The notes under the pieces were generated by a model, which saw only the letters and a program-made list of their open reading frames with translations, was not told the DNA's origin and did not search any database. Below, one piece after another: positions 9,876 through 34,267 of a DNA stretch of 64,000 bases. A program made the translations under genes and the position numbers. Within the stretch, counting starts at the first letter, position 1, and each line of letters starts with the position of its first letter. This DNA is from Bacillota bacterium (GTDB taxonomy: Bacteria; Bacillota; Dethiobacteria; DTU022), in the NCBI GenBank assembly GCA_019428945.1, contig JAHYJM010000001.1, positions 18,267 to 82,266 of the forward strand, written 5' to 3'.

Positions 9876-11048
9876 TTGTTTAAATTTAAAAATGCCTGGA
9901 TTCTGATCTTGGTAATTGCTCTGTTTGCGTTTGGTCTTTTCGGTTGCGGCGACGATACTGCTGCTCCGGTCGATGAAACTCCTGAGGGAGACGCCGAAGG
10001 TGAATTTGAAGGACAGGTTTTATTTGGGATCATGGTTCCGATAACCGGCTCAGAAGCCGCTGATGGCATCGACATGGAAAATGCCGCTCTTCTGGCTGTT
10101 CAGGAAATTAATGCAGCCGGCGGCGTACTCGGCTACGAAATTATAACCAGCACTGGTGATGACGAGTGTGATCCTTCCAAGGCAACTGCTGCTGCCAGCA
10201 AATTAATTTCTGAAGAGGTTGTTGCAGTTGTCGGTGGATACTGTTCAGGAGCTACTCTACCTACACTGGCTCTTTACGGTGATGCAGGCATTCCCTTCGT
10301 TATTGGAGCTGCTAATGCTACTTCTCTAATTGATGAAAACCCGGGCTGGACCTTTATGATCAACAGCACCGGTGACGCACAGGCAGCCAAAGCTGTTGAA
10401 TGGTTTGAAGGCCTTGGCGTAGATACAATCGCCCTGGTTGATGATGGCTCTGCCTTCGCAGTTGATTTGAAAGAACAGACTAAAATGCAGTGGGAAGCTG
10501 CTGGCCACTCTGTTGTAGCTGAAGACAGGGTAGAAACCGGTACTCAGGACTTTTCGGCAGTAGTTACCAGCATTATGTCTGCAAACCCTGATGCTGTTTA
10601 CTGGACAGCATACCAGGGCCTGGGCGCTCTTTTGATCAGGCAGCTTCGTCAGGATGGTTATGAAGGCGTAATCATGGTTGGCGACGGCTCAAGCGCGCAA
10701 GAACTGCTCGACCTTGCCCAGGCTGAAGGAGAAGGCGTATACTGCACCGCTCCTCCGGTAGTTGACTTTTTACCTGCAGCTCAAAGCTTTATTGAGGGCT
10801 ACAACGAAAACTTCCCGAGAGAACCGGGTGCATATGCCGGCCTGATGTATGATGCTACTTACCTGCTGGTTAATGCGATTGAAAGAGCAGGATCTTTTGA
10901 CGGCGAAGCAATCAAAGACGCTCTTGCCGCAACAGACGGTTTTGAAGGTATTACCGGACCGATCGGTTTTACCCCGCAGAATACACTGAACAGAAGCAAC
11001 TTCGTTATTCTGGTCGGTGAAGGCGGAAGATGGCAACTGGCAGAATAA
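9876..11048 (+). CDS. Branched-chain amino acid (HAAT/Liv) ABC transporter substrate-binding lipoprotein
   Basis: Signal peptide with lipobox LFGC; PITG, INAAGGVLG, DDECDP, VVGGYCS, YDATY. Confidence 0.92.
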   Translation: MFKFKNAWILILVIALFAFGLFGCGDDTAAPVDETPEGDAEGEFEGQVLFGIMVPITGSEAADGIDMENAALLAVQEINAAGGVLGYEIITSTGDDECDPSKATAAASKLISEEVVAVVGGYCSGATLPTLALYGDAGIPFVIGAANATSLIDENPGWTFMINSTGDAQAAKAVEWFEGLGVDTIALVDDGSAFAVDLKEQTKMQWEAAGHSVVAEDRVETGTQDFSAVVTSIMSANPDAVYWTAYQGLGALLIRQLRQDGYEGVIMVGDGSSAQELLDLAQAEGEGVYCTAPPVVDFLPAAQSFIEGYNENFPREPGAYAGLMYDATYLLVNAIERAGSFDGEAIKDALAATDGFEGITGPIGFTPQNTLNRSNFVILVGEGGRWQLAE

Positions 11049-11069
11049 AAAAGATAGTATAAAACGGCT

Positions 11070-11097
11070 TGCAGGCCTGGTTAAAGCCAGGCCTGCA
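11070..11097 (+). other. Intra-operonic stem-loop after the binding-protein gene (mRNA stabiliser or partial terminator)
   Basis: TGCAGGCCTGG-ttaaag-CCAGGCCTGCA, no U-tract. Confidence 0.6.
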
Positions 11098-11117
11098 CAT
11101 GCTTGAGAGGTGAACAG

Positions 11118-12032
11118 ATGACTACCTGGGAGATTTTTTTGCAGCAGCTTTTTAATGGTTTGCTTGTCGGTTCTTTTTATGGACTAGTTGCTATCGGTTA
11201 TTCCATGGTCTACGGTATCATTAAGCTGCTGAACTTTGCCCATGCTGATATTTACATGAGCGGAGCTTTTGCCGGACTTATCATACTAGGTTTCTTAAAC
11301 CCCTATATCGGTAACCAGTGGCTCGGCATTATAGTTGCACTTTTATTAAGCATGATTTTAGTCGGATTGCTGGGGGTAGCAATTCAAAGAGTCGCTTACC
11401 GGCCTATGTTAAAAGCGCCGCGGCTATCAATACTCATTACTGCTTTAGCTGTATCAATGATCCTTTACAATACAGTTTTACTAATGACCCAGGGGCAGTA
11501 CAAACCATTTACAACAGGTTTGACTCATGAAAGCTTTTATATTGGGGCCCTGCGTATGACAGAAACGAGGCTGGTTCTGCTTATTGCCGCCCTTGCTCTT
11601 ATGTTGATGCTGCACCTGTTTATTACCAGAACCATGTATGGAAAAGCAATGCGCGCCATTGCACTTGACCGGGATACCTGCCAGTTGATGGGGATAAACG
11701 TATATAAAATTATAGCCATCACTTTTTTCGTCGGTTCTGCACTGGCTGCAGCAGCCGGTATCATGGCTGGCGTTTACTACGGAACGGTTCACTTTTTCAT
11801 GGGCTTTTTAATCGGCCTCAAAGCTTTTACAGCCGCAGTTATCGGGGGCATTGGGATCATACCCGGGGCCATGCTGGGTGGTCTGCTGCTCGGTCTGCTG
11901 GAAGCTTTCGGCACCCAGATACCTTTTATCGGTTCATCGTGGAGAGATGTGTTTACCTTTGTATTCCTGATTCTTTTCCTAATCTTTAAGCCTAACGGCC
12001 TTTTGGGACGTATGGAAAGCGAAAGGATGTAG
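11118..12032 (+). CDS. livH: Liv-type ABC transporter permease LivH
   Basis: QQLFNGL..GSFYGLVAIGYSMVYG..LNFAH, GKAMRA, LKAFTAAVIGGIG; ATG chosen from the GAGGTG RBS. Confidence 0.92.
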   Translation: MTTWEIFLQQLFNGLLVGSFYGLVAIGYSMVYGIIKLLNFAHADIYMSGAFAGLIILGFLNPYIGNQWLGIIVALLLSMILVGLLGVAIQRVAYRPMLKAPRLSILITALAVSMILYNTVLLMTQGQYKPFTTGLTHESFYIGALRMTETRLVLLIAALALMLMLHLFITRTMYGKAMRAIALDRDTCQLMGINVYKIIAITFFVGSALAAAAGIMAGVYYGTVHFFMGFLIGLKAFTAAVIGGIGIIPGAMLGGLLLGLLEAFGTQIPFIGSSWRDVFTFVFLILFLIFKPNGLLGRMESERM

Positions 12033-12036
12033 CGTT

Positions 12037-13038
12037 ATGGCTGAGAAAAAACAAAAAAAGTTCACTAATCCATTTGGCACTGTCGTAGAAAGTCTTTATG
12101 ATCTATTCGATAAGAAGGCTCCGCGTTACCTGCTTATGACCATAATGACAGCTTTCTTAATATATCTGCCGCTTAGTTCCAGCCGTTTTACGCAGGAGAT
12201 TATGACAAACCTGTTTTTTTATGTAGTAGTGTGCCTTGGCCTTAATATTATAGTTGGTTTTGCCGGCTTACTGCATTTGGGGTATGCTGCTTTTTTTGCT
12301 GTCGGAGCTTACACTACAGGAATCCTCAGTTCGGTATACGGGGTGAACTTCTGGCTAACTCTACCCTTCAGTATAATTGCGGCAGTAATTGCAGGTCTGG
12401 CGATCGGGGCTCCTACTCTCAGGTTACGCGGTGATTACCTGGCTATAGTAACACTTGGTTTTGGTGAAATAATCCGACTGACTGTCCGCAACCTGGATAT
12501 AACCGGTGGAGCAATGGGCCTAATCGGCATCCAGCGTCCGGTTTTGTTCGGTATAGTTTTAAACCAGATTACCCATTTTTATTATCTTTTTTTCATACTG
12601 GCTGTTATTGCCATTATTGTTTCTTATCGCCTGCACGATTCAAGGTTGGGAAGGGCATGGGAATATATCAGGGAAGATGAGGATGCTGCCTCGGCTATGG
12701 GCATCAACGTAGTCCAAATCAGGCTATACGCTTTTATTATCGGATCAGCTTTCGGAGCACTCGCCGGTTCTTTGTATGCCGCAAAGATGACAGCTATATC
12801 ACCGGAATCTTTCATGTTTATTCACTCGGTAATGATTCTACTGGCAGTAGTACTCGGCGGAATGGGCAAAATTCCGGGTGTTATCCTAGGTGCAATCATT
12901 GTAACCCTTATTCCCGAATTATCACGTGATATCGGACAATTCAGACTGATCATATTCGCAGTTCTACTATTAATTCTAATGCTTTACAGGCCTCAGGGTA
13001 TTTGGCCTGAAAGACAAGGTATATCAACTAAATTATAA
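12037..13038 (+). CDS. livM: Liv-type ABC transporter permease LivM
   Basis: LGLNIIVGFAGLLHLGYAAFF, RLRGDYLAIVTLGFGEI, IREDEDAA, VVLGGMG. Confidence 0.92.
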   Translation: MAEKKQKKFTNPFGTVVESLYDLFDKKAPRYLLMTIMTAFLIYLPLSSSRFTQEIMTNLFFYVVVCLGLNIIVGFAGLLHLGYAAFFAVGAYTTGILSSVYGVNFWLTLPFSIIAAVIAGLAIGAPTLRLRGDYLAIVTLGFGEIIRLTVRNLDITGGAMGLIGIQRPVLFGIVLNQITHFYYLFFILAVIAIIVSYRLHDSRLGRAWEYIREDEDAASAMGINVVQIRLYAFIIGSAFGALAGSLYAAKMTAISPESFMFIHSVMILLAVVLGGMGKIPGVILGAIIVTLIPELSRDIGQFRLIIFAVLLLILMLYRPQGIWPERQGISTKL

Positions 13039-13050
13039 TGGGGTGTTGCA

Positions 13051-13830
13051 GTGGCGCTACTTGATATTAAAGACCTGACCTTGCGTTTTGGCGGCCTCTG
13101 CGCCGTTAACCAACTTTCACTTGAAATTGAAGAGGGCTCTATCCGCAGTTTAATCGGCCCGAACGGTGCCGGTAAAACCTGTGTTTTTAACTGCCTGACC
13201 GGTTTTTATAAGCCGAGCAGCGGTGATATGGTATTCATGGGTACAAGTATTATGAAGAAAAAACCGCACCTGATCACCCACATGGGGATGGCACGTACTT
13301 TTCAAAATCTGCGGCTTTTTAAACAAATGACTGTAATGGAAAATGTAATGTCCGGAATGCACTGCAGAACCAACGCAGCCTTTGCAGGCGCTGTTTTGCG
13401 GACACAAAGCCAGAAAGCCGAAGAAAAACTTATTCGGGAAATCGCTGAAGAGTGCCTTGATTTCGTCGGTATCCTTGATAAAAAGAATTACATGGCCAAG
13501 AATCTTCCTTATGGCGATCAGCGCCGGGTAGAATGGGCCAGGGCGCTGGCCACACAGCCTAAACTTCTGCTCCTTGATGAACCGGCCGCCGGCCTGAATA
13601 AAGAAGAAAAGGCTCGCCTGATTAACCTAATGCGTAGAATCAGGGATGAAAGAAAAGTAACCATATTCCTGATTGAGCATGACATGGGCCTGGTTATGAA
13701 GGTTTCGGAAAAGATTTTTGTAATCGACTACGGGGTTAAAATTGCTGAAGGAACTTCCAAAGAAGTTAGAGACAATCCAAGGGTAGTAGAAGCATACCTT
13801 GGCAAGGAAGAAACGGAGGATGCCGTATGA
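13051..13830 (+). CDS. livG: Liv-type ABC transporter ATP-binding protein LivG
   Basis: GPNGAGKT, ARTFQN, LPYG, LLLLDEPAAG, IEHDM, VEAYLG. Confidence 0.92.
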   Translation: MALLDIKDLTLRFGGLCAVNQLSLEIEEGSIRSLIGPNGAGKTCVFNCLTGFYKPSSGDMVFMGTSIMKKKPHLITHMGMARTFQNLRLFKQMTVMENVMSGMHCRTNAAFAGAVLRTQSQKAEEKLIREIAEECLDFVGILDKKNYMAKNLPYGDQRRVEWARALATQPKLLLLDEPAAGLNKEEKARLINLMRRIRDERKVTIFLIEHDMGLVMKVSEKIFVIDYGVKIAEGTSKEVRDNPRVVEAYLGKEETEDAV

Positions 13831-14543
13831 GCGAAACAATACTAGCTTTAAAAGATCTTGAAACCAGGTATGGGCAAATTTACGCTCTGCGCGGCATCAA
13901 CTTTGAAGTTAAAAAGGGTGAAATTGTAACTCTGTTGGGTGCTAATGGTGCCGGGAAAAGCACGACCCTTAAAACAATTTCAAGCCTTGTTCCTGCCTCT
14001 GCCGGTAGCGTCAATTTTTTCAACGAAGATATTACTCACCTTGATCCTTATGCAATTGTTGAAAGAGGCCTGATCCATGTACCTGAAGGACGGATGATTT
14101 TTAAGGAATTAACTGTACTCGAAAACCTTGAGCTGGGCTCATTTACTCTTAGGGATAACGTTGAACGGAAAAAAAGAATCGACAGGGTATGCGAACTTTT
14201 TCCTGTATTAAAAGAGAGACATAAGCAGATGGGTGGTTTTCTCTCCGGGGGAGAACAGCAAATGCTTGCTATCGGAAGGGCCCTGATGACGGAACCGAAA
14301 ATACTGATGCTCGATGAACCTTCAATGGGACTAGCTCCGATTATTGTTCAGAACATCATGGATATTATCAAGCAGATCAACAGTGAGGGAACGACTATTT
14401 TATTGGTAGAACAAAATGCCAAAGTTGCCCTCAAGCTCGCTGACAGAGGTTACGTTTTAGAGACCGGAGAAATTGTCATGGAAGGCGATGCAGATGTTCT
14501 CAGCAAAGATGAAAGTATTGTAAAAGCTTACCTTGGCGAATAA
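13827..14543 (+). CDS. livF: Liv-type ABC transporter ATP-binding protein LivF
   Basis: GANGAGKST, HVPEGR, LSGGEQQMLAIGRAL, LDEPSMGLAP, VEQNA. Confidence 0.93.
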   Translation: MSETILALKDLETRYGQIYALRGINFEVKKGEIVTLLGANGAGKSTTLKTISSLVPASAGSVNFFNEDITHLDPYAIVERGLIHVPEGRMIFKELTVLENLELGSFTLRDNVERKKRIDRVCELFPVLKERHKQMGGFLSGGEQQMLAIGRALMTEPKILMLDEPSMGLAPIIVQNIMDIIKQINSEGTTILLVEQNAKVALKLADRGYVLETGEIVMEGDADVLSKDESIVKAYLGE

Positions 14544-15809
14544 ATGACTAATATTAGTTTCAATAAAACCGTTCTTTTAATTTGTATTACAATGATCTGC
14601 CTCTTGCTAAGCCACGGTTCAGCCTGCGCTGAAGATAACCCGGCTTTAGTTTCAGATAATGATGCTCCTGAAAAGACTGTGCTTTACTATTTTTGGGGAT
14701 ATTGTCCTGTTTGCAGTAAACCGGAAGAACATGTCCATCTTTTTGAAGATTACCCAATCACGGTAGAGATTTATGAAGTTTTTCACGACGAAGAAGGTCG
14801 GGCAATTTATGATCAATTCAGTGAAGACCTGGGTATTGAAGTATATGGCTTTCCGACCCTGGTTTTTAAAGATAAATATTGGCTCGGTTTTTCAGAGACA
14901 GTCCAGGTTGAAATTCTAACCGAAATAGAGGCCCACCTCAGTGGTGAAGATAGCGCTGCAGGTCAGATTATACAGATACCATTTTATGGCGAAGTTGATC
15001 TTCAGGCCTCTCCGTTACTTCTGACAACGGCTATCATAGCTACACTGGACGGTTTTAATCCCTGCTCTCTATTTGTTTTAACATTCCTGCTGGCAATAAT
15101 CGTTCATTCGGCATCACGTAAAAGGATTTTCCTGGTTGGTTTAACTTTTTTGGCAGTAACTTCTGCTGTTTACGGCCTTTTCATGCTGGGTGTTCTTAAT
15201 ATTATGCTCTTCGCAAGTCAGCTTTTCTGGATTCGCAACATAGTCTCGGCTGTTGTAATTTTACTGGGACTGGTGGGAATCAAAGATTTTCTGTTTTTCA
15301 AAGAAGGCGTTTCTTTCGTCATTCCCGATTCTTATAAAAAGAAATATTACAGCCAGGTTCGAAATATATTTTACACGAAGTCAGTAATACCGATGATTAT
15401 TGCCACGTCTGTGATGGCACTGGGAATTGCACTAATCGAGTTGCCCTGTACCGCTGGCTTTCCTTTTATCTGGAGCAGTATAGTCAGCACAAAAGATCTA
15501 CCCTTATCACAGTATGCCATCCTGTTTATAATCTATCTCTTTCTCTACCTTTTGATCGAACTAATTATTTTTTTTATTGCCGTCATCAGGATGCGATCAG
15601 TTAAAATGACTGAAGAGAGGGGACGGATACTTAAGCTCATTGCCGGCAGCCTGATGCTTGTATTAGGTTTGGTACTATTCTTCAGACCTGGTTATATGGA
15701 GAATCTTATTGGGATACTAATCACTTTCGGATCAGCTTTCATTTTGATTTTATTAATGTTCCTTTTTAAAAAGATTTTTTTAACTGACGTGGGGAGGCAG
15801 ACCAAATGA
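14544..15809 (+). CDS. Exported glutaredoxin/thioredoxin-like domain fused to a CcdA/DsbD-like membrane domain
   Basis: Signal peptide, CPVC plus GFPT cis-Pro loop; about 7 TM helices with DGFNPCS and ELPCTAG cysteines. Confidence 0.7.
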   Translation: MTNISFNKTVLLICITMICLLLSHGSACAEDNPALVSDNDAPEKTVLYYFWGYCPVCSKPEEHVHLFEDYPITVEIYEVFHDEEGRAIYDQFSEDLGIEVYGFPTLVFKDKYWLGFSETVQVEILTEIEAHLSGEDSAAGQIIQIPFYGEVDLQASPLLLTTAIIATLDGFNPCSLFVLTFLLAIIVHSASRKRIFLVGLTFLAVTSAVYGLFMLGVLNIMLFASQLFWIRNIVSAVVILLGLVGIKDFLFFKEGVSFVIPDSYKKKYYSQVRNIFYTKSVIPMIIATSVMALGIALIELPCTAGFPFIWSSIVSTKDLPLSQYAILFIIYLFLYLLIELIIFFIAVIRMRSVKMTEERGRILKLIAGSLMLVLGLVLFFRPGYMENLIGILITFGSAFILILLMFLFKKIFLTDVGRQTK

Positions 15810-16828
15810 ACTGGAAACCATCGGAAAATTGGATCACTTTAACCGCTATTGATGCTCACACAGGAGGGGAGCCTCTGAGAATATTTGCAGGTGATCATCC
15901 TAAAATACCAGGCGATACAATTCTTGAAAAACGAAAGTATGCCCTGAAAAATATCGACTACCTCAGAACAGCAACACTCTGGGAACCACGTGGACATGCT
16001 GACATGTATGGCTGTATAATTACCGAACCAGTAACTGACGATGGCCATTTTGGTGTTCTTTTTACTCACAATGAAGGTTACAGCAGCATGTGCGGCCATG
16101 GGATTATCGCCGTAACAAAAGTTGTGCTTGAAACAGAATTAATAAATATACCCTTTGATAGCAGGCAGGTAAATATTGACACTCCCGCAGGCAGGGTAAC
16201 CGCCTATCCTTCCTGGAAAGATGGCTCAGTAACCAGTGTCTCTTTTTTGAATGTGCCTTCTTTTATTTACGCTGCGGCTGAAGTTGTTAATGTACCGGGA
16301 TTGGGTAAAATAAATTATGATGTTGCGTTCGGAGGAGCTTTTTACGCATTTGTTGATGCTGAAGAAGCTGGGGTTGAACTGAATCCCGGTGGGTTCAGGA
16401 AGCTGATCGAAAGAGGAACATTGATAAAGAAGGCAATTATGAATGAGAGTGAGATTAAGCATCCCTTTGAAATTGATCTCGGATTCCTTTACGGTGTCAT
16501 TTTTGTAGGTAAATCTGAAAAAGCGTCAAATCACAGCCGTAATGTATGTGTTTTTGCTGATGGTGAAGTCGATCGAAGTCCTACCGGAACCGGAGTAAGC
16601 GCAAGAGCTGCAATTCACTTCAGCAGGGGTGAAATTACTTTAAACGAACCATTTGTGGTTGAAAGTATTCTGGGCACTACTTTTACAGGCGAAGTAGTTG
16701 AAAAAACAACTTTTGGCCACCATGATGCAGTAATACCGAAAATAACAGGCTCAGCTCATATATGCGGCATCAATAAGCTGGTTATAGATCCGGATGATCC
16801 TTTAAAACACGGTTTTATTCTCAGGTAA
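15806..16828 (+). CDS. Proline racemase superfamily enzyme, Cys/Thr type (probable trans-3-hydroxy-L-proline dehydratase)
   Basis: DAHTGGEPLR, EPRGHADMYG, SMCGH, and DRSPTGTG (Thr replaces the second catalytic Cys). Confidence 0.82.
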   Translation: MNWKPSENWITLTAIDAHTGGEPLRIFAGDHPKIPGDTILEKRKYALKNIDYLRTATLWEPRGHADMYGCIITEPVTDDGHFGVLFTHNEGYSSMCGHGIIAVTKVVLETELINIPFDSRQVNIDTPAGRVTAYPSWKDGSVTSVSFLNVPSFIYAAAEVVNVPGLGKINYDVAFGGAFYAFVDAEEAGVELNPGGFRKLIERGTLIKKAIMNESEIKHPFEIDLGFLYGVIFVGKSEKASNHSRNVCVFADGEVDRSPTGTGVSARAAIHFSRGEITLNEPFVVESILGTTFTGEVVEKTTFGHHDAVIPKITGSAHICGINKLVIDPDDPLKHGFILR

Positions 16829-17777
16829 TTTCACTGCCGGACCTGATCGGTATTCCAGTTAACAGGCTGTTCATGAACTCAGCCCGTTCTTTTACATGTT
16901 CCTCTGAGGGCGGCAGCAGGTCACGGCATCTGTAATCTAATCCGAGTAGTCGGTAAGTATCGCTGCCCAGCCGATGGTAAGGTAGCAGCTCGATCTCCTT
17001 GATTTTTTTCAGTTTAGTGCAAAAGCCGAGTGTGGCTGCCAGGTTTGAATCAGTATCATTATAACCGGGTATAAGAGGAATGCGAATAATTTCTCCAAAG
17101 TGGTAACTTGTTTGATCTGCTTTTATCAGGTTGTCAAGTGTAGTTTGGTTGCTCGCTCCCACCCACAGTGTGTGCATCTGGTTGTCCATATGCTTAAGGT
17201 CGGCATAAAGGTGGTCCAGCCAGGGCAGAACCGTGTCCAGGCTGCTGTAAGGTGTATAAAGGCTGCTTTCCAGAGCTGTGTGGATGCCATTTATTTTGCA
17301 TTTTTCAAGAAGAGCGGCACAGAAGTCAGGTTGGCAAAGCGGTTCTCCCCCGCTGAGTGTTATTCCTCCTCCGGAATGGAAGTAGAATATTTCATCCTTG
17401 CTGATTTCTTTCATTAAGTCGTCAACCGTCATAGTAAACCCGTATTTTTTAACCGCATTAGCCTGGCACACTTCAAAACATCGAAAACATCCTACACATT
17501 TATCCCTGTCAGTAATAACACCCAGGCCATCATCAGATAAAGTTATGGCATTTTCGGGGCAGGATTCAATACAGCGGCCGCAGGCTGTGCAAAGTCTCTG
17601 ATCATAGCCTTTCTCAAATTCAAAAGACTGTGACTCAGGCGTAGAACACCAGGGGCAGCTTAGCTGGCAGCCCTTTAAAAATATTACGGTTCTCAAACCC
17701 TGACCATCATGTATTGAAGATCTTTCGATCCTGATAATATTGCCTTTTAAATGTTTTTTCTTCAATGTGTCTTTCAT
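16821..17777 (-). CDS. Glycyl-radical enzyme activating enzyme (radical SAM with ferredoxin insert)
   Basis: HDGQGLRTVIFLKGCQLSCPWC, two CxxCxxCxxxC motifs, SGGEP, LLPYH; ATGA overlap with the upstream GRE. Confidence 0.95.
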   Translation of the reverse strand: MKDTLKKKHLKGNIIRIERSSIHDGQGLRTVIFLKGCQLSCPWCSTPESQSFEFEKGYDQRLCTACGRCIESCPENAITLSDDGLGVITDRDKCVGCFRCFEVCQANAVKKYGFTMTVDDLMKEISKDEIFYFHSGGGITLSGGEPLCQPDFCAALLEKCKINGIHTALESSLYTPYSSLDTVLPWLDHLYADLKHMDNQMHTLWVGASNQTTLDNLIKADQTSYHFGEIIRIPLIPGYNDTDSNLAATLGFCTKLKKIKEIELLPYHRLGSDTYRLLGLDYRCRDLLPPSEEHVKERAEFMNSLLTGIPIRSGSEIT

Positions 17778-20191
17778 CCCGTCGAAATGCCATGTTGTAC
17801 AGTACGACCGATAATTTCATCCTGAACATCTTTTCCAAGCTCTACGAAGTAGGCAGTATAGCCGGCGACACGCACCAGCAAACCTTTATACTTTTCAGGC
17901 TCCCGTTGAGCGTTGATCAGTGTTTCCTGATCAATAACATTGAACTGCACGTGAAAAACACCTAAGCTGCAAAGGCTCTTTAATAGGGCCATTAACTGGG
18001 TTATCCCATTTTCCGTCTTGAGCATTGCAGGCTCAACTTTCATGTTCAACAGGGTTCCCTGGACAAACCTGCCGTGAGGAATATGAGCAACAGATTTGAT
18101 TACAGCACTGGGCCCGTTCAAATCTGTTCCTCCACTCGGACTGACACCATCAGCAAGGGGCTGCCAGGCTTTACGTCCGGATGGCAGGGCACCTACTTCC
18201 AGGCCGAAAGGTGTATTTCCCGATACAGGAAGTATACCCGGGGTCATTTTCCCGAACTTGCTTTCATAACGCTCTATTTCGTCGGCGATGTATGTAAATA
18301 TTTCTCCCGCAATTTCATCAGCATATGGGTCATCGTTACCGTATTTTGGCGCTTCAAGACACAGTTTGCGGATTTCTTCATATCCACAAAAATCATGATC
18401 AAGGGCTTCTATAAGCTGTTCCATCGGCACCAGTTTCTGATCATAAACCAGGTATTTAACAGCTGTAATACTATTGATCAAATCAGCCACCCCGATCAGG
18501 ATAATGCCGTTTCCCACATTATACTTGGCGCCTCCCCATGCATAATCTTTCGCATTTTCTATACAATCCCTGAAAGTGAGAGAAAGAGCGGGCACCGGCC
18601 TGTTAAGGCCAATCTCATCTATTACGTGGCTTCCGGCAATAACTGCCCTGGTTGCGTAAGCAATCTGACTTTTTACAGCCTGGAGAAACTGATCAAATGA
18701 AGTGAATTCTTTTGGTTCTCCGGTTCTCTCAGATATGATCAGGCCGCTCTTTCTGTTGATGCCGTTTAGCAGGGTAAATTCGACCATGCTTCCAAGGTTA
18801 ATGTCGGCAAGAGCGGTGTACTGCCGCATGCGCCCTTCTAAGTTAGTCTCGACACAACCACAGGGGTTCCAGTTATACGCTTCTCTGAGAGGGACGCCCT
18901 TGTTCATTAGCATGGCAATACCTATATCATCATTATGAAAAGCAGGGAATCCCGTCCCCAGTCTGATCAGCTCCACAACCTTGCGAAGAAATGAGTTCGG
19001 GTTTTTAGAGACGCTGTAGCGCACCGAGAGAGAAGGCTGGTATAGCTGTACATCCATTGTAGCCTGCAATATCATGTATGAGAGATCGTTTACGGCGTCT
19101 TTACCAGCCTCATCAACTCCGCCTGCACAGACATTCTGAAACATGGGATAACCTGCGGCAAACTCTGCTGTCTGAGCATCCTGAAAAAGACATGGCTCGC
19201 TGAATTTAATCCAGAGACAGTCGAGAAGTTCCTGAGCCTGTTCCGGAGTTATGCGTCCTGCATCAATATCAGCTTTATAAAATGGCCAGAGATACTGATC
19301 CATTCTGCCCGGGTTGTAACTGGCGGCATTCTGCTCCATGAAGATCATCGTCTGATAAAAATATAGTGATTGCAAGGCTTCGCGGAAAGTGCGGGCCGGC
19401 TTCATCGGGACCCGGCGGCAGACTTCAGCAATTTCAATTAATTCTTTTTTACGCCTGGGGTTATCCTCTGCAGCTGCCAGCTTATCAGCCTCTTCAGCAT
19501 ATCGTTCAGCATTTCTGGCTATGCCGTCAGCGGCAATTAAAAGCGATTTAAGGTAGTAATCTTTTTCGAAATCACCCGGTTTAGTTAGATCCAGTTTTGA
19601 TTTTCTCTCTTTAATGCTGAGAATAATCCCTTCAAGCCCTTCTTTAATCAGCCATTCATAACCGGCAGTTGTTTCGCCCCAGCCACGAACAGCTTTTCGA
19701 TCTATATAGACAACACCGTTATCGCGAAGAACCCTGGTTTCATCGGGAATCTGGGCCAACCATTCCTCATAATTTGAACGTCCTTTCCAGTAAGGACGAA
19801 TTTCTTCTTCAAAAGCAAACCTGTCTTCCGGTTTAAGGTTGAAAGGATCGTATTTCCGGCTGCTTATTGTATCGAGCTCCTTGTCTAATACGGACCAGCA
19901 GGAGTCGGCGCAGAGAATACCTGCCCTGATCTTACTGCCTGAACAACCGACAATAAGCTCTTCATCCCATATCTTAATCGTTTTTTCGCAGCACTGATTC
20001 CTGAAAGCCCTGGCTTTGCGCATTACAAGCGGTTCACCCTCAGCTTCCCTGAAACCCTTTGTCAACAGCCTGGCATTTTCCAGATCCATCTCAGGCTGAG
20101 TATCAAGAACCCGTTGTTTCAGAAAGTGGATGCGTTTCATGTAGGTCGGTTCAACTCGGGCTTCCAGTTTTTTTTGCTTTGTCTGAGGCAT
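17774..20191 (-). CDS. Glycyl radical enzyme of unassigned specificity (eliminase-like)
   Basis: ELIVG, PGRMDQYL, finger loop NPCGCVET, QFNV, Gly loop LVRVAGY. Confidence 0.93.
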   Translation of the reverse strand: MPQTKQKKLEARVEPTYMKRIHFLKQRVLDTQPEMDLENARLLTKGFREAEGEPLVMRKARAFRNQCCEKTIKIWDEELIVGCSGSKIRAGILCADSCWSVLDKELDTISSRKYDPFNLKPEDRFAFEEEIRPYWKGRSNYEEWLAQIPDETRVLRDNGVVYIDRKAVRGWGETTAGYEWLIKEGLEGIILSIKERKSKLDLTKPGDFEKDYYLKSLLIAADGIARNAERYAEEADKLAAAEDNPRRKKELIEIAEVCRRVPMKPARTFREALQSLYFYQTMIFMEQNAASYNPGRMDQYLWPFYKADIDAGRITPEQAQELLDCLWIKFSEPCLFQDAQTAEFAAGYPMFQNVCAGGVDEAGKDAVNDLSYMILQATMDVQLYQPSLSVRYSVSKNPNSFLRKVVELIRLGTGFPAFHNDDIGIAMLMNKGVPLREAYNWNPCGCVETNLEGRMRQYTALADINLGSMVEFTLLNGINRKSGLIISERTGEPKEFTSFDQFLQAVKSQIAYATRAVIAGSHVIDEIGLNRPVPALSLTFRDCIENAKDYAWGGAKYNVGNGIILIGVADLINSITAVKYLVYDQKLVPMEQLIEALDHDFCGYEEIRKLCLEAPKYGNDDPYADEIAGEIFTYIADEIERYESKFGKMTPGILPVSGNTPFGLEVGALPSGRKAWQPLADGVSPSGGTDLNGPSAVIKSVAHIPHGRFVQGTLLNMKVEPAMLKTENGITQLMALLKSLCSLGVFHVQFNVIDQETLINAQREPEKYKGLLVRVAGYTAYFVELGKDVQDEIIGRTVQHGISTG

Positions 20192-20318
20192 TAAAATCCC
20201 TCCAGGTCTTTTTATACTATTTTATAATTATAGCATACCTTATTTGTTCAGTATATTGTTGATACTAACATCTCGTCCGAACTTCTGATATAATATTTAA
20301 TGTCAATGAAAGTGAGAA

Positions 20319-21239
20319 ATGATGAACAAGGGAATAATTTTTAACATTCAAAGGTTTTCACTGCACGACGGCCCGGGGATTAGAACAACTATATTTTTTA
20401 AAGGCTGCCCATTAAGCTGCCCTTGGTGCCAGAACCCGGAGGGGATGAGGCCTGAAAAAGATCTTTTCAGACATTCAGCCCGCTGTATCGCATGCCGGTT
20501 TTGCGTAGAGCATTGTCCGGAAAAAGCCGTTGAACTTACTGAAAATGGTCCGGTAATTAATCGTGACTTATGTTCACTATGCCTGATCTGTGCAGAAAAT
20601 TGTCCTGTTGAAGCATTTGAAAAAGCGGGCAGGGAAATCACTGTAGGCGAGCTTGTAAATGAAATCATAAAAGATAGAATTATATTTGAAGAATCGGGAG
20701 GAGGAGCAACATTTTCCGGCGGTGAACCGCTTATGCAAAGTGGGTTTTTGATCAGTGTATTAAAAGCATTAAAAAACGAAGGGATCCACACAGCTATTGA
20801 AACATCCGGTTATGCTTCCTGGGAGAGCTTTAGGGATACGCTTCCATATACAGATCTATATTTATTTGATTTAAAAATTGTTGATCCGGGAAAGTGCAAA
20901 GAATTTCTGGGCGTAAATATAGAACCGATACTTGAGAATCTGAATAAACTAGCTAAAAATAATGCTGATATATTAGTGCGTATTCCAGTAATTCCCTCGG
21001 TAAATGATGATTTAAGAAATTTGAACCTGGTGGTGAAAACTTTGAACAGCGCCGGAATTGATTCTCTCGAGCTGATCCCATACCATAAACTCGGTTCGGC
21101 AAAATACTCAAACCTTGATCTTAATTACAGCATGCATAATATTGAACCGCCCGGCCCCGATCAATTGGATCGAATCACAAAACTGCTTGAAGCATCTGGT
21201 ATTATTATACATAGCGAGGTAGAACGCGAAAATGATTAA
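20319..21239 (+). CDS. Glycyl-radical enzyme activating enzyme (HypD activase)
   Basis: HDGPGIRTTIFFKGCPLSCPWC, ferredoxin insert, FSGGEP, ETSG; overlaps hypD. Confidence 0.93.
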   Translation: MMNKGIIFNIQRFSLHDGPGIRTTIFFKGCPLSCPWCQNPEGMRPEKDLFRHSARCIACRFCVEHCPEKAVELTENGPVINRDLCSLCLICAENCPVEAFEKAGREITVGELVNEIIKDRIIFEESGGGATFSGGEPLMQSGFLISVLKALKNEGIHTAIETSGYASWESFRDTLPYTDLYLFDLKIVDPGKCKEFLGVNIEPILENLNKLAKNNADILVRIPVIPSVNDDLRNLNLVVKTLNSAGIDSLELIPYHKLGSAKYSNLDLNYSMHNIEPPGPDQLDRITKLLEASGIIIHSEVEREND

Positions 21240-23613
21240 ACAAAACCGTGGTATGAACGACAGAGTACAAAAATTACGGGAAATAAGTGAGACAACAAGA
21301 CCGTCAATTTCAATCGAGCGAGCTTTACTGGTTACTGAGGCATATAAAAACCATGCCGGCAAGGTGAGTATCCCTGTGCTCAGAGCTCTTGTTTTTAAGC
21401 ATTTGATGGAGAATAAAACTATCCATATTGAGAATGGAGAACTGATCGTAGGCGAACGCGGAACGGGACCACAGGTCACACCGACCTATCCTGAGCTTTG
21501 CTGTCACACGCTTGATGATCTATCGGTTATTTCAGAAAGAGAAAAAATTTCATTTGAAGTTAACGAGCATGTCCGAAATACCCAGGAACATGAAATCATC
21601 CCTTACTGGCATGGTCGTTCCATGCGGGAAAATATATTTAAACAGATGAGCAAGGATTGGCACAACTGTTACGAAGCCGGTATTTTTACAGAGTTTATGG
21701 AGCAGCGTGCCCCTGGCCACACTGTGGCAGGAGATAAAATATACAACACAGGTATGCTTGATTTAAAAGCTCAGATTACCAGTAAACTTAATTCACCTGG
21801 TTTAAAAGATAATCCTGATCAAGAAGCTAAACGAGAACAGCTTAAAGCAATGGATATATGCGCCGACGCTTTAATCACCTTTGCAAAACGGCATGCTCAA
21901 AAAGCAAGGGAAATAGCCAAAACAGAAATTTTACCGGAAAGAAGAGCGGAGCTGCTAAAAGTCGCGTCTGTTTGTGAAAGAGTTCCGGCCAATGCTCCAT
22001 GCGATATGTGGGAAGCTCTTCAATATTACTGGTTCGTTCACCTCGGTGTTATAACCGAGCTCAATACCTGGGATGCTTTCTGTCCCGGCAGGCTTGATCA
22101 ACACCTCCGGCCATTTTACGAGAAAGATATTGAAAAGGGAAACCTCAACCGCGAGAAGGCAAAAGAACTTCTTGAATGTTTCTGGATTAAGTTCAATAAT
22201 CAACCAGCCCCGCCCAAAGTCGGAATAACCCTGAAAGAAAGTGGAACATACACCGATTTTTCGAACATCAACCTCGGTGGTGTAAAGCCTGACGGTAAAG
22301 ACGGTGTAAACGATATAACCTACCTGCTGCTTGAAGTAATTGATGAAATGCGCCTGCTTCAGCCAAGTACTAATATACAGCTCAGCAAGAAAAATCCTGA
22401 TCTCTTTATCAGGAAAGCCGGCGAAATTATCCGTAAAGGCTGGGGACAACCTTCAGTTTTTAATGTTGAAGCTGTAATCCAGGAGCTTCTGATCCAGGGT
22501 AAATCACTGGTTGATGCCAGGAATGGAGGAACAAGCGGGTGTGTTGAAACTGGTGCATTCGGAAAGGAAAGCTATATCCTGACTGGTTATTTCAACCTGA
22601 CTAAAGTATTGGAAATAACCCTGAATAATGGCTTCGATCCTTTAACGGGTAAACAGCTTGGACCGGATACCGGTAACCCACGTGACTTTAACAGCTTTGA
22701 AGAGTTGCTGAAAGCTTTTGAAACGCAGCTAAAACATTTTCTGGATATAAAAATAACAGGAAACCAGGTGATTGAAAAACTCTATGCTGATAACATGCCA
22801 GCGCCATTTCTTTCACTAATCATCGATGACTGTCTTGAGAATGCCAAAGATTACAATGCCGGTGGTTCGCGCTATAATACAAACTACATTCAGGGTGTAG
22901 GCATAGGCTCAATCACTGACAGTTTGGCATCGATCAAAAAACATATATACGACGATCAAAAATACAGCTGGGATCGGTTATTATCTGCCCTCAATACTAA
23001 TTTTTCAGGTCTTGAAGCAATGAGACAGTATATAATTCACAAAACACCGCACTACGGCAACGATGACGACTATCCCGATGATATTATGCAAAAAGTTTTC
23101 AGTATGTTTCACCATCTGGTTGACGGACGTAAAACTTTCCGCGGCGGCACGTACAGGATCAACATGCTGCCAACAACATGCCACGTTTATTTCGGATCAA
23201 TAATCGGCGCAACTCCCGATGGACGTTTAGCAGGGATACCATTATCGGAAGGTATATCACCCGTGCAGGGTACTGACATAAGCGGACCGACAGCGGTAAT
23301 TAAATCAGCTGCTAAGATGGACCACCTGCTGACAGGCGGAACTCTGCTAAACCTGAAATTTTCACCCATAGCGCTGGCAGGAGATAAAGGTCTTGATAAC
23401 CTGGTCCATCTTGTCAGGTCATATTTCAGGATGGACGGTCATCATATACAGTTTAATGTTGTTGACGCCGATACACTTAAAAAGGCCCAGGCCAACCCTG
23501 AGCTTCACCGTGGTTTGATCGTGAGGGTGGCCGGTTACAGCGACTATTTCAACAACCTCAGCGAACAGCTTCAAAACGAGATAATTACCCGCACTGCACA
23601 CGAAGCCCTTTGA
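21232..23613 (+). CDS. hypD: trans-4-hydroxy-L-proline dehydratase (glycyl radical enzyme)
   Basis: HypD-like segments as recalled from the C. difficile enzyme: TYPELCCH, FMEQRAPGHT, FNNQPAPPKVGITLKES.TYTDF, TSGCVETG; also MLPTTCH and RVAGYS. Confidence 0.9.
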   Translation: MIKQNRGMNDRVQKLREISETTRPSISIERALLVTEAYKNHAGKVSIPVLRALVFKHLMENKTIHIENGELIVGERGTGPQVTPTYPELCCHTLDDLSVISEREKISFEVNEHVRNTQEHEIIPYWHGRSMRENIFKQMSKDWHNCYEAGIFTEFMEQRAPGHTVAGDKIYNTGMLDLKAQITSKLNSPGLKDNPDQEAKREQLKAMDICADALITFAKRHAQKAREIAKTEILPERRAELLKVASVCERVPANAPCDMWEALQYYWFVHLGVITELNTWDAFCPGRLDQHLRPFYEKDIEKGNLNREKAKELLECFWIKFNNQPAPPKVGITLKESGTYTDFSNINLGGVKPDGKDGVNDITYLLLEVIDEMRLLQPSTNIQLSKKNPDLFIRKAGEIIRKGWGQPSVFNVEAVIQELLIQGKSLVDARNGGTSGCVETGAFGKESYILTGYFNLTKVLEITLNNGFDPLTGKQLGPDTGNPRDFNSFEELLKAFETQLKHFLDIKITGNQVIEKLYADNMPAPFLSLIIDDCLENAKDYNAGGSRYNTNYIQGVGIGSITDSLASIKKHIYDDQKYSWDRLLSALNTNFSGLEAMRQYIIHKTPHYGNDDDYPDDIMQKVFSMFHHLVDGRKTFRGGTYRINMLPTTCHVYFGSIIGATPDGRLAGIPLSEGISPVQGTDISGPTAVIKSAAKMDHLLTGGTLLNLKFSPIALAGDKGLDNLVHLVRSYFRMDGHHIQFNVVDADTLKKAQANPELHRGLIVRVAGYSDYFNNLSEQLQNEIITRTAHEAL

Positions 23614-23673: not shown

Positions 23674-23749
23674 AGGGGAGTAGCTCAACTGGCAGAGCAG
23701 CGGTCTCCAAAACCGCAGGCTGCGGGTTCAAGTCCTGTCTCCCCTGCCA
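23674..23749 (+). tRNA. tRNA-Trp (CCA)
   Basis: Acceptor AGGGGAG/CTCCCCT, anticodon arm GCGGT-CTCCAAA-ACCGC, GGTTCAAGTCC T-arm, encoded CCA. Confidence 0.96.
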
Positions 23750-25771: not shown

Positions 25772-28144
25772 ATGAGCAACCAATTAAATCTATTCGACAC
25801 CATCATTGAACGTCACAATAGCAAAGCCTCCGGATTAATTATGATTCTGCAGGATATCCAGACTGAATTTGGTTACCTTCCGCCGGAGGCTGTATCAAGA
25901 ATATCCGAAACACTTCATATTCCGCAGTCACAGGTTTATTCAGTAGCAACATTTTATAAATCCTTTTCTTTAAAACCGCAGGGTAAGCATAAAATAGATA
26001 TTTGCGAAGGCACCGCCTGCCATATCAGGGGTGCTTCTGTTTTAATGAGCCAGGTATCTGAAGAATTAAGTATAAAGCCCGGTGAAACCACCGCAGATGG
26101 TGAATTAACATTAAACTCTGTTCACTGTGTGGGAGCCTGCGCAATGGCCCCTGTAGTTGTAATTGACGGTGCCTACCATGGCAGCGTTACCTCTTCGCAG
26201 TTGTCAAAAGAGCTTAAGAGTTGCTGTTCTTCAGAAATTAAAAAGAAAGATGCTAAACCACCGGCAGAAACAATAGTTGGGCTGGGTGAAAAAATAGCAT
26301 CTCCTGAACAACTCGATAGAATAAGAAACCGGATCGCCAGTGAAAAACCGCTAAACGAAGCAAAGATTCTGGTTTGCGCCGGAACCGGCTGCCTGGCCAA
26401 AGGTAGTCTTGCAGTTGCTGAAGCGATCAGCCGGGAATTAAGATCTTCAGCCCTCGACCTACCGGTTAATCTTGGCTTAAAAAGAGTAGGCTGCCAGGGC
26501 TTTTGTGAAAAGGGACCCCTTGTAATTATTTCACCACAGAAAATTTTCTATAACAATGTCCGTCCGGAAGATGCCGAAGTAATAATCAGGGAAACAATAA
26601 TCGGTAAAAAGGCAGTGGAGAGACTGCTTTATCATGATCCTGAGACTGAAAAGAGCATGGAGGTTTATGAAGAGATACCGTTTTTCGCCGGACAGGAGCG
26701 AATAGCCCTTAGAAATGTTGGTACTATCGATCCGCTCGACATTAAAGATTATATCGCACAGGGCGGTTTCAGTGCTCTAATAAAAGCACTTTATAAAATG
26801 AATCCCGGGCAGGTTATCAGCGAAATTGAAAGTTCCGGTTTGCGTGGAAGAGGAGGAGGAGGCTTTCCCACCGGAAGAAAATGGCGCACAAGCGCTTCTG
26901 TTCCGTCTGATATCCGTTATGTAATCTGTAATGGTGACGAGGGAGACCCCGGCGCTTTTATGGATCGCAGTATCATGGAAGGCGATCCATACTCAGTTCT
27001 TGAAGGCATCATAATCTGTGCATATGCGATAGGCGCTTCTGAAGGTTTTATCTATGTCAGGGAAGAATATCCGCGCGCTTTAAAACACCTCCAGGCTGCA
27101 ATCGACCAGAGCAGGAAAGCCGGGATCCTCGGCAGTGATATTTGTGGCACCGGTTTTTCATTTGATATCACTATTAACCGGGGTACGGGCGCTTTTATCT
27201 GCGGCGAGTCAACAGCGCTAATGCAATCAATTGAAGGTAAGGTCGGAGAGCCACGGGCAAAATATATCAGATCCGCCGAACGGGGTCTTTATGATAAACC
27301 TACTGTTTTAAACAACGTTGAAACTTTTACTAATATACCTGAAATTATTCGCAAAGGTGCCAAATGGTACTCCTCGACCGGAACAAGCACCAGTCCCGGC
27401 ACCAAAGTCTTTTCAGTCGTGGGCAAAGTGAAGAACACAGGACTGGTAGAGGTTCCAATGGGAATAACTATGCGTAAAATCATCTATGATATATGTGGTG
27501 GGATCCTTGACAACAAATCATTTAAAGCTGTCCAAACCGGCGGCCCTTCAGGTGGCTGTCTGCCGGCAAGCAAGCTTGACATACCGGTAGATTTTGACAC
27601 ACTTACACTTGAAGGATCGATGATGGGTTCCGGCGGCATGATAGTAATGGACGAAGAAACCTGTATGGTTGATGTTGCCCGCTACTTTACAGATTTTCTT
27701 TCCCAGGAATCATGTGGGAAATGTGCTGCCTGCAGGCTCGGCCTGGCCAACCTTCACGACATTCTGGACAATATTTGCCGCGGTAAAGGTAGAGCAGGGG
27801 ATATAGAAAGAATAGAAAAGCTGCTTGAACTGCTTGAACAGGGCTCTTTGTGCGGTCTTGGCAAATCTGCGCCCAACCCTGTTCGCAGTACACTTAAACA
27901 CTTTAAAGAAGAGTACCTGGCTCACATTAATGAAAAGAGATGCCCTGCCGGAGTCTGCCGGGATTTAATCAGTTTTCATATAACCGACGACTGTACCGGA
28001 TGCCGGCGATGTGCCAGGGTTTGTCCGCAAAAAGCGATAAGCGGCAATAAAAAGGAGCTTCATATTATTGATCAGGATCTCTGCAACCGCTGCGGCCTAT
28101 GCCGTGTTACCTGCAACTTTGATGCCGTTATTGTTGAAAGTTGA
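25772..28144 (+). CDS. Fused NuoE/HydC - NuoF/HydB (BfuC-BfuB-like) FMN/Fe-S NAD(P)H-binding subunit
   Basis: ATFY..F, CEGTAC...CVGAC (2Fe-2S); CAGTGC...CQGFC; GLRGRGGGGFPTG; NGDEGDPGAFMDR; GGPSGGC; ESCGKCAACR; HINEKRCPAGVC; two C-terminal 4Fe-4S motifs. Confidence 0.92.
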   Translation: MSNQLNLFDTIIERHNSKASGLIMILQDIQTEFGYLPPEAVSRISETLHIPQSQVYSVATFYKSFSLKPQGKHKIDICEGTACHIRGASVLMSQVSEELSIKPGETTADGELTLNSVHCVGACAMAPVVVIDGAYHGSVTSSQLSKELKSCCSSEIKKKDAKPPAETIVGLGEKIASPEQLDRIRNRIASEKPLNEAKILVCAGTGCLAKGSLAVAEAISRELRSSALDLPVNLGLKRVGCQGFCEKGPLVIISPQKIFYNNVRPEDAEVIIRETIIGKKAVERLLYHDPETEKSMEVYEEIPFFAGQERIALRNVGTIDPLDIKDYIAQGGFSALIKALYKMNPGQVISEIESSGLRGRGGGGFPTGRKWRTSASVPSDIRYVICNGDEGDPGAFMDRSIMEGDPYSVLEGIIICAYAIGASEGFIYVREEYPRALKHLQAAIDQSRKAGILGSDICGTGFSFDITINRGTGAFICGESTALMQSIEGKVGEPRAKYIRSAERGLYDKPTVLNNVETFTNIPEIIRKGAKWYSSTGTSTSPGTKVFSVVGKVKNTGLVEVPMGITMRKIIYDICGGILDNKSFKAVQTGGPSGGCLPASKLDIPVDFDTLTLEGSMMGSGGMIVMDEETCMVDVARYFTDFLSQESCGKCAACRLGLANLHDILDNICRGKGRAGDIERIEKLLELLEQGSLCGLGKSAPNPVRSTLKHFKEEYLAHINEKRCPAGVCRDLISFHITDDCTGCRRCARVCPQKAISGNKKELHIIDQDLCNRCGLCRVTCNFDAVIVES

Positions 28145-33454: not shown

Positions 33455-34267
33455 ATGAAAAATGATAACATTGGTATTATCGGCTGCGGCGCAATGGGTT
33501 CAGCGCTGGCAAAAGGTATGGTAAAAGCAGGTGGCATTAAACCGGCTTCTATTTTCCTTTATGATCTGGACAAAGGAAGAATGACAGAACTCGCAAATGA
33601 ATTGAAAGCGACACCGGCTGAAAAACCGGCAGATTTTATTCCTTTCTGCCGTCACATTTTTATCGCTGTTAAGCCTCAGGATACGGAAGGATTATTGTAC
33701 GCTATAAAACCTTACGTCCAGTCTGATCAAATTTATGTATCGATAGCAGCAGGAATTACAATTAGTTTTATCGAAAGTTGTCTTTCATCCGGTACTAAGG
33801 TCATTCGATTAATGCCGAACACTCCCTGCCTGATCGGTGAAGGCACAATAGCGCTGAGCACCGGTGACGCTGTTACGGATGATGAAAGGCGAGAAGTTGA
33901 ATGCCTGCTTAAATCACTTGGCCTGACGATGAGGCTTCCTGAAAAGCTAATGGATGCTGCAACAGGCCTCAGTGGTACAGGACCTGCCTATGTCTATCTC
34001 TTTATAGAAACTATGATTGATGCCGGTGTTTCTGTTGGTATAAGACGTGATGTCGCTACAAAAATGGTAGTACAGAATGTGATCGGCGCCGCAAAAATGC
34101 TGGAGACAAATGCGCAGCATCCTGCGGAACTTCGTAATATAGTCACATCTCCGGCAGGAACTACAAGTTCAGCTCTGCTTGTTCTTGAAGAATCTGGTTT
34201 CCGCAGCTGTCTGATTAAAGCAGTGAGGGAAGCAACCAGGCGTTCAGAAGAACTACGGCTGGGTTAA
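33455..34267 (+). CDS. proC: Pyrroline-5-carboxylate reductase
   Basis: IGCGAMG, AVKPQ, SIAAG, RLMPNTP, GLSGTGPAY, VTSPAGTT. Confidence 0.95.
   Translation: MKNDNIGIIGCGAMGSALAKGMVKAGGIKPASIFLYDLDKGRMTELANELKATPAEKPADFIPFCRHIFIAVKPQDTEGLLYAIKPYVQSDQIYVSIAAGITISFIESCLSSGTKVIRLMPNTPCLIGEGTIALSTGDAVTDDERREVECLLKSLGLTMRLPEKLMDAATGLSGTGPAYVYLFIETMIDAGVSVGIRRDVATKMVVQNVIGAAKMLETNAQHPAELRNIVTSPAGTTSSALLVLEESGFRSCLIKAVREATRRSEELRLG

Follow-up and report, generated by a model that had tools for sequence, protein, structure and literature searches.

A putative N-methyl-4-hydroxyproline dehydratase of the HpyG/HpzG family encoded head-to-head with HypD in a Dethiobacteria genome

What reaction might a second glycyl radical enzyme (GRE) catalyze when its gene stands head-to-head with that of HypD, the trans-4-hydroxy-L-proline dehydratase? 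The question is raised by a 64,000-nucleotide stretch of DNA (the window) from a Bacillota bacterium of the Dethiobacteria lineage DTU022 (GenBank assembly GCA_019428945.1, contig JAHYJM010000001.1, forward-strand positions 18,267 to 82,266), in which such a gene occupies positions 17774-20191 on the minus strand, next to that of its activase. A reading made from the sequence alone had left this GRE unassigned and had proposed an eliminase or C-N lyase for another hydroxyproline isomer or a related imino acid, possibly related to HplG or else representing new chemistry. Our comparisons place it in the HpyG/HpzG family, whose characterized enzymes are N-methyl-4-hydroxyproline dehydratases, and make new chemistry unlikely. 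Membership of this family and C-O elimination as the reaction are well supported, and we put the probability that the enzyme acts on the same substrate as HpyG at roughly 0.6; more narrowly, the substrate would then be the cis-L isomer of N-methyl-4-hydroxyproline.

The GRE is a protein of 805 residues that matches the pyruvate formate-lyase (PFL)-like domain PF02901 (666.6 bits) and the Gly_radical domain PF01228 (105.6 bits). Its glycyl radical site is Gly777, within the RVAGY motif at 774-778, and its Cys loop, NPCGCVET at 442-449, bears a Cys-x-Glu motif as Cys446-Val447-Glu448; the two segments quoted in the sequence-only reading, AEFAAGYPMFQN and GILPVSGNTPFG, lie at residues 342-353 and 652-663. 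The GRE stop codon overlaps by 4 bases the start of the gene for a 318-residue radical S-adenosylmethionine (SAM) enzyme on the same strand (16821-17777), which scores 310.9 bits against the GRE activase model TIGR02494 (cut-off 174.35) and has radical SAM and ferredoxin-like domains, with a CX3CX2C motif formed by Cys37, Cys41 and Cys44 and two ferredoxin-like CX2CX2CX3C motifs. None of the substrate-specific NCBIfam activase models reaches its cut-off for this protein. The open reading frames, the Pfam domains and the TIGR02494 match therefore confirm a complete second GRE with its own activase, and the layout described earlier also holds. The pair diverges from the HypD pair across an AT-rich intergenic region of 127 bp (20192-20318), which separates the GRE from the HypD activase, and converges on a racemase-family gene (15806-16828) that overlaps the end of the activase gene tail to tail by 8 bases. 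Presumably the 127-bp gap holds the promoters of both divergent units; promoter-like consensus sites occur there on the plus strand (20265-20294, 10/12) and on the minus strand (20318-20290, 9/12), as pattern matches from a promoter and terminator scan whose hits were consistent yet lacked specificity. An Rfam scan revealed no regulatory RNA near the GRE locus.

As far as NCBIfam is concerned the GRE is indeed unassigned, the generic TIGR01774 being the only model above its cut-off. It scores well below the cut-offs of the substrate-specific models for the choline trimethylamine-lyase CutC (TIGR04394, 709 bits against 1050) and for HypD (NF043068, 630.3 bits against 1100), in agreement with the earlier view that it is neither HypD, PFL nor CutC. 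Among the PDB sequences, however, it has a close relative. In a comparison with all of them, 8ID1 ranked top, aligning over residues 16-798 with 1247.8 bits, ahead of 8IOF (946.4 bits), and no other sequence scored above the best CutC (658 bits); HypD reached 491 bits and HplG (7VUA) 385 bits. The fold gave the same picture. An AlphaFold model built from a 29-row alignment (predicted local distance difference test score 85.5, predicted template-modeling score 0.88) was used as a Foldseek query and matched 8ID1 over its full length at 67% identity, with template-modeling scores of 0.95/0.98 and a root-mean-square deviation of 1.4. Identity in the same search was 52% to 8IOF, 38-39% to CutC, 35-36% to propanediol and glycerol dehydratases, 35% to HypD and 30% to HplG.

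The PDB title of 8ID1 names the enzyme and Intestinibacter bartlettii. According to a review of GREs from 2026 (PMC13450708), 8ID1 is HpyG and 8IOF is HpzG (FS41), both stemming from work by Jiang et al. (ACS Catal 2024) and both C-O eliminases in which Cys435 and Glu437 carry out catalysis; the review also gives Cys-x-Glu on the Cys loop as the motif of GRE 1,2-eliminases. A crystal structure of HpyG accompanied its description in 2024. Cys446 and Glu448 of the window GRE align with Cys435 and Glu437 of HpyG. The NPCGCVET loop, which had been singled out as unlike that of HypD or PFL, is present as stated but is not unusual: since HpyG and HpzG both carry it in identical form, it is a signature of this family and no mark of novelty. 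The eliminase half of the earlier proposal stands and the C-N lyase half is very unlikely, the nearest relatives being C-O eliminases. Given 67% identity to HpyG, new chemistry is unlikely. The listing of N-methyl derivatives among the candidate compounds, on the other hand, would fit well with the relationship to HpyG and HpzG.

We compared the substrate pocket with that of HypD, for which the structure paper (eLife 2020) names 13 residues for substrate binding and catalysis. Mapped through an alignment of 79 GREs, HypD Phe152 corresponds to Arg165 of the window GRE, His160 to Glu173, Asp278 to Ala290, Lys326 to Gln337, Ser334 to Ala345, Asp339 to Met350, Tyr450 to Asp463 and Thr645 to Val656, and equivalents of Arg156 and Phe340 are found in Arg169 and Phe351. 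Trp277 falls in an alignment gap, leaving 12 homologous positions that include the conserved Cys446 and Glu448. The window GRE therefore resembles HypD (6VXC/6VXE and the copy in the window) as a predicted 1,2-eliminase of the GRE class for a hydroxyproline ring, with Cys-x-Glu and the Arg156 and Phe340 equivalents in place, but it differs in eight replaced pocket residues and the missing Trp277, at an overall identity of 35-36%. In that paper Asp278 is the proposed base that deprotonates the ring nitrogen, and Ser334 is a carboxylate ligand whose replacement in the S334A mutant abolishes activity. Alanine at the Asp278 position would fit a tertiary N-methyl amine substrate, which has no N-H to deprotonate. 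The mapped states are nearly invariant across the 65 HpyG-like proteins of the family tree described below, and they rule out a second HypD.

When positions 459, 461 and 464 are added to the 12, a list of 15 is obtained that derives from homology to HypD and not from the HpyG paper. HpyG agrees with the window GRE at 12 of the 15, among them Arg165, Arg169, Glu173, Ala290, Met350, Phe351, Asp463 and Val656, and at 11 of the 12 HypD-homologous ones, the exception being 345; the three mismatches in this region are thus Ala345, Leu461 and Ile464 of the window GRE, for which HpyG has Ser334, Tyr450 and Tyr453 in its own numbering. HpzG shares the fold, the Cys loop and the aliphatic residues at 461 and 464, but has Lys165, Tyr171, Ser290, Leu294, Asn349, Thr351-Val-Gln, Glu463, Val660 and Ile662, unlike the window GRE. 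Where the two characterized enzymes disagree in active-site segments, the window GRE sides with HpyG, at 165, 167, 171, 174, 176, 178, 290 and 294 and again at 349, 351-353, 463, 660, 662, 664 and 665. What we found is a pairing of high identity to a characterized GRE with largely conserved binding residues (67% to HpyG, the catalytic Cys and Glu, 12/15 pocket positions), and this pairing tells against the sequence-only view of an enzyme set apart from those already described.

On these grounds the pair at 16821-20191 would be a glycyl radical 1,2-eliminase of the HpyG family with its activase, dehydrating an N-methyl-4-hydroxyproline. By analogy with the family, the radical SAM activase, with its cluster at Cys37/41/44, would generate the radical on Gly777, from which it would be transferred to Cys446, and the thiyl radical of Cys446 would then abstract the C5 hydrogen of the substrate. 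With Glu448 of the Cys-x-Glu motif holding it, the 4-hydroxyl would depart as water, and return of the hydrogen to C4 would give N-methyl-pyrroline-5-carboxylate. The substrate may arise from hydroxyproline betaines demethylated by MttB-type methyltransferases encoded in the genome, or may be taken up directly through the adjacent Liv-type transporter, and the product may be reduced by the pyrroline-5-carboxylate (P5C) reductase of the island.

The rest of the 2.36-Mb genome offers material for the first of these routes. It contains 24 MttB-family matches, on 18 other contigs (e.g. G000:C67:4608-6023), of which 7 have an in-frame TAG, which suggests pyrrolysine-type enzymes beside betaine-type ones that lack pyrrolysine. 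One contig (G000:C101, locus L094, 6997-17026) carries a cluster of genes for a sigma-54 activator, an octopine-dehydrogenase-like protein, MttB, a PanB-like protein, an OpuA-type betaine ATP-binding cassette (ABC) transporter and a racemase-family protein of the Cys/Cys type, whose highest score, 364 bits, is to the proline racemase model but stays short of the cut-off. This cluster is a candidate unit for demethylation and epimerization of proline betaine or hydroxyproline betaine. With 24 MttB matches and this cluster, the demethylation of betaines could plausibly furnish N-methylated imino acids.

The family was then viewed in a wider set of genomes. Scanning species-representative genomes yielded 100 relatives, and the best 80 of these 100 loci (numbered with L here) were kept. 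ORF calling and clustering produced 90 GRE-family proteins, and a FastTree tree was calculated for the 79 that have at least 740 residues, 11 shorter ones being omitted. Its rows comprise 11 HypD proteins, 3 of another Synergistota GRE type and 65 in one HpyG-like clade, which sits on a long branch with a support of 100. Within the latter we distinguish a basal Desulfobacteraceae group of 3, a Synergistota group of 6, a "gut" group of 14 and the window's own group of 42, made up of environmental anaerobes (metagenome-assembled genomes of Syntrophomonadaceae-like bacteria, Desulfosporosinus, Formimonas and Desulfofustis). The window GRE, whose nearest row is L002 at 86% identity, falls together with the HpyG-like gut clade in a group of 56 rows.

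Searched with one short motif each, the 80 loci and 124 stored proteins yielded neither the 8ID1 nor the 8IOF protein, and HpyG and HpzG, whose PDB sequences are not in the tree, were placed relative to it by comparing scores. Against 8ID1, a Lactonifactor row of the gut group reached 1491.9 bits and the window GRE 1247.8 bits, followed by rows from Clostridium CAG:413 (1215.9) and Desulfotignum (1038), whereas the scores of these four clade members to 8IOF were just 862-946 bits. By this measure HpyG belongs to the gut group, and HpzG, to which all four score lower than to 8ID1, lies outside the 65-row clade. In a co-occurrence survey of 401 genomes of the phylum, with two candidates scored per genome, 6 other genomes had a relative of at least 73% identity; with two scored candidates per genome the survey is uninformative on the co-occurrence of subtypes. 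None of the 6 same-family genomes gave a match at E <= 1e-150.

The other Synergistota GRE type was seen in three loci (L040:7606-9978, L043:731-3103 and L045:7414-9948), where a second, very different GRE with its own activase is encoded directly upstream of the HpyG-like gene. It is 34-37% identical to the two GREs of the window, and has His at the position of HypD Asp278 and Phe at that of Ser334.

Family membership does not fix the isomer, and a number of observations weigh against the same substrate as HpyG. Only 14 of the 805 positions separate the window's 42-row group from the gut group, but three of them are the pocket-region mismatches. Position 345 is Ala in all 42 rows of the window group and Ser in all 14 of the gut group, 461 is Leu in 42/42 against Tyr in 13/14, and 464 is Ile in 42/42 against Tyr or Phe in 13/14; further contrasts are found at 564 (Ile in 42/42, Asp in 14/14), 565 (Leu in 41/42, Ala in 13/14) and 694 (Pro in 41/42, Met in 13/14), where HpyG itself likewise has Asp-Ala and Met. 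Position 345 aligns with Ser334, the carboxylate ligand of HypD, positions 461 and 464 flank Asp463, the counterpart of HypD Tyr450, and the D-specific HpzG has Ile at both of these flanking positions.

The gene context differs as well. Among genes within 8 kb of the GRE, counts that are lower bounds as many loci are short contigs, an MttB methyltransferase occurs in 6/14 gut rows and 0/42 window-group rows. The reverse is seen for HypD (0/14 and 10/42), for a racemase-family gene (0/14 and 12/42) and for a Liv-type transporter (3/14 and 16/42, in three arrangements). The HpyG-like context of MttB, P5C reductase, regulator and major facilitator superfamily (MFS) transporter is thus not matched at the window, where the GRE adjoins neither MttB nor an MFS transporter but stands head-to-head with HypD, with a probable 3-hydroxyproline dehydratase and a Liv transporter on its other flank. 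In common with HpyG, it has an adjacent dedicated activase and a P5C reductase in the wider locus, P5C-reductase-like genes being found beside the GRE in both subclades (7/14 gut rows and 5/42 window-group rows within the same distance). One Synergistaceae assembly holds both a copy of the ancestral type (L042) and a copy of the gut type (L063), a possible sign that neither type simply duplicates the other. An identity of 67% to HpyG cannot by itself fix the isomer, because HpyG and HpzG differ only in the stereochemistry of their substrates and the window GRE is still 52% identical to HpzG. Given these clade-specific substitutions in the pocket region and a gene context that departs from that of the HpyG clade, isomer preference is not settled by homology.

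The most serious competitor of the HpyG substrate therefore keeps the family and its chemistry and changes the isomer: the window clade would form a separate isofunctional group for another N-methyl-4-hydroxyproline, be it cis-D as for HpzG, the natural trans-L or trans-D. The consistent states at 345, 461 and 464, the unlike gene contexts, the two types in one assembly and the Cys/Cys epimerase-type gene of the betaine transporter and MttB cluster all speak for it. Against it, the window GRE follows HpyG at most positions that distinguish HpyG from HpzG. In addition, the window-group states at 345, 461, 564 and 694 are found in the Synergistota and basal groups too, and that at 565 in the basal group only; because these states are shared in this way, the gut HpyG lineage appears to be the derived one, the states of the window clade are probably ancestral, and the changes in the HpyG lineage may be neutral. 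We regard this alternative as possible, though clearly the less probable outcome. Tentatively, then, the 42-row clade might represent a third specificity within the family, for example for trans-4-hydroxy-N-methyl-L-proline, the natural compound, or for a D isomer.

Farther from HpyG would be a dehydratase for an unmethylated isomer, such as cis-4-hydroxy-L-proline or cis-4-hydroxy-D-proline, which would complement HypD and the 3-hydroxyproline dehydratase in an island for collagen-derived substrates. Such a role would suit the linkage of the GRE with HypD, which takes two forms (divergent genes in loci of the Syntrophomonadaceae type, tandem genes in Desulfosporosinus), its further linkage with 3-hydroxyproline dehydratases of two unrelated types, and a nearby transporter that is of the Liv amino-acid type and not a betaine transporter. 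We nevertheless consider it improbable, since Ala290 stands in place of the Asp that HypD needs for deprotonation of a secondary amine, and Ala290, Glu173 (for His160) and Met350 (for Asp339) are together the residues of the N-methyl-specific HpyG. A C-N lyase, opening the ring like HplG or releasing an amine like CutC, for instance from hydroxyproline betaine, is less probable still and in our view very unlikely. CutC does provide the best substrate-specific NCBIfam model for the GRE, and a bulkier nitrogen might find room beside the aliphatic residues 461 and 464, but the CutC score is far below cut-off, and both of the nearest characterized relatives, at 67% and 52% identity, catalyze C-O elimination. 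No microcompartment genes accompany the GRE, and no AKP thiolase turned up, though no search was aimed at one.

Several specific identities were tried and rejected along the way. As a HypD paralog the protein fails the HypD model, with His160, Asp278, Ser334, Asp339, Tyr450 and Thr645 all replaced. CutC and HplG have the same GRE fold, but the CutC model is missed and identity is 38-39% to the solved CutC structures; the suggested relationship to HplG does not hold up at 30% identity to 7VUA, whose 385 bits rank below 26 other PDB sequences, and the window's sole racemase-family gene is of the Cys/Thr type, so that the earlier statement that the window has no Cys/Cys epimerase is upheld. An association with microcompartments was likewise dismissed: as had been noted before, no microcompartment shell gene was found among the scanned window proteins, and PF00936 had no match anywhere in the genome, which is 98% complete. 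PFL-like-class GREs in this genome number just two, the window GRE and HypD. A label of choline trimethylamine-lyase is attached in one public source to seven relatives of 78-81% identity (P0010, P0017, P0018, P0034, P0052, P0053 and P0068), and this label does not fit the closest characterized members of the family.

The HpyG-family pair forms part of a larger hydroxyproline island. Across the intergenic region, on the plus strand, lie the genes for a HypD-type activase of 306 residues (20319-21239; best NCBIfam model NF043069 at 350.8 bits, short of its cut-off of 425, and TIGR02494 at 334.6 bits) and for the 793-residue HypD (21232-23613; NF043068, 1340.6 bits against a cut-off of 1100). 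The latter has 13/13 of the substrate and catalytic residues of eLife 2020, and by these sequence criteria we assign it as a true HypD. A tRNA gene (23674-23746) follows directly 3' of hypD.

On the other flank, the convergent gene 15806-16828 (plus strand) encodes a proline-racemase-family protein of 340 residues (Pfam Pro_racemase, 349.7 bits) whose two catalytic positions are occupied by Cys96 and Thr260, in line with the Cys/Thr type assigned to it before. Its best NCBIfam model is NF045511, for trans-3-hydroxy-L-proline (t3LHyp) dehydratase (376.8 bits, below the cut-off of 540), and its PDB matches include 6R76 (445.7 bits), deposited as "Proline racemase" and presumably a Thermococcus litoralis dehydratase, and 7QPO, "Trans-3-hydroxy-L-proline dehydratase" (299.5 bits). 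Because of the Cys/Thr pair, the best model and the 7QPO match, it is probably a t3LHyp dehydratase. Four close loci (L023:8584-9612, L024:8252-9280, L032:6889-7917 and L049:13389-14426) have in the same slot, on the strand of the GRE, a protein of the Ser/Thr type that is 30% identical to the convergent Cys/Thr protein of the window. The L049 protein, the sole one scanned, exceeds the cut-off of another t3LHyp dehydratase model (NF047722, 627.7 bits against 550). This swap looks like a non-orthologous replacement, and the occupation of one slot by two unrelated versions of one activity supports the predicted dehydratase function.

The gene order on one strand is aldehyde:ferredoxin oxidoreductase (AOR), Liv transporter, a membrane protein of 421 residues and the racemase-family gene, with the activase and GRE on the opposite strand, followed beyond the GRE by the HypD activase, HypD, an ornithine aminotransferase and a NuoEF-like gene; the same arrangement is repeated in Syntrophomonadaceae-like loci (e.g. 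L002, L012, L032 and L049). The Liv-type amino-acid ABC transporter (9876-14543, plus strand; binding protein, two permeases and two ATPases by Pfam and NCBIfam) is a candidate importer for the substrates of the island. Upstream of it, the AOR (7150-9312) is syntenic at 86-93% identity in L002, L032 and L049. The polytopic membrane protein (14544-15809, plus strand), encoded between livF and the racemase-family gene, carries a signal-like segment and a CPVC motif at its N terminus. It has no Pfam or NCBIfam match, and 7 related loci conserve it in this place. A pyrroline-5-carboxylate reductase, ProC (33455-34267, plus strand; TIGR00112, 272.5 bits against a cut-off of 196.75), is encoded 13 kb from the GRE and is the sole PF14748 match in the genome; it is a candidate for the reduction of both P5C and N-methyl-P5C. 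An OCD/mu-crystallin gene (3973-4935) matches pyrroline-2-carboxylate reductase models, all below their cut-offs.

Downstream of hypD and the ornithine aminotransferase gene, the region 25772-33245 encodes a 790-residue NuoE/NuoF fusion, a 1310-residue multi-domain protein and a 390-residue oxidoreductase of the DAO family (SoxB-like), after which comes proC. The 1310-residue protein is an iron-sulfur flavoprotein with HoxU-like 2Fe-2S, several 4Fe-4S, FlpD, Pyr_redox_2/SoxA-like and BFD-like 2Fe-2S domains. Synteny extends to 6 related loci for the NuoEF gene and to L049 for the 1310-residue gene. Together these genes could encode an NAD/ferredoxin-linked dehydrogenase complex for proline or N-methyl amino acids. 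Elsewhere in the window we noted a T-box leader (48545-48777) upstream of a LeuA-like gene (46925-48487), and a phage-type integrase gene at 48955-50007.

The scientific weight of placing this GRE in the HpyG family is modest, but it bears on how the family is seen and counted. Described from gut Clostridia, the HpyG family is widespread in environmental anaerobes, often together with HypD and a 3-hydroxyproline dehydratase in a hydroxyproline island. NCBIfam has no model for it, and surveys of trimethylamine genes could miscount these enzymes as choline trimethylamine-lyase. The consistent contrasts Ser345Ala, Tyr461Leu and Tyr464Ile provide a handle on what sets stereo-preference in the HpyG/HpzG family and, should the window clade prove to have a third specificity, these anaerobes would possess a three-enzyme island covering several hydroxyproline species.

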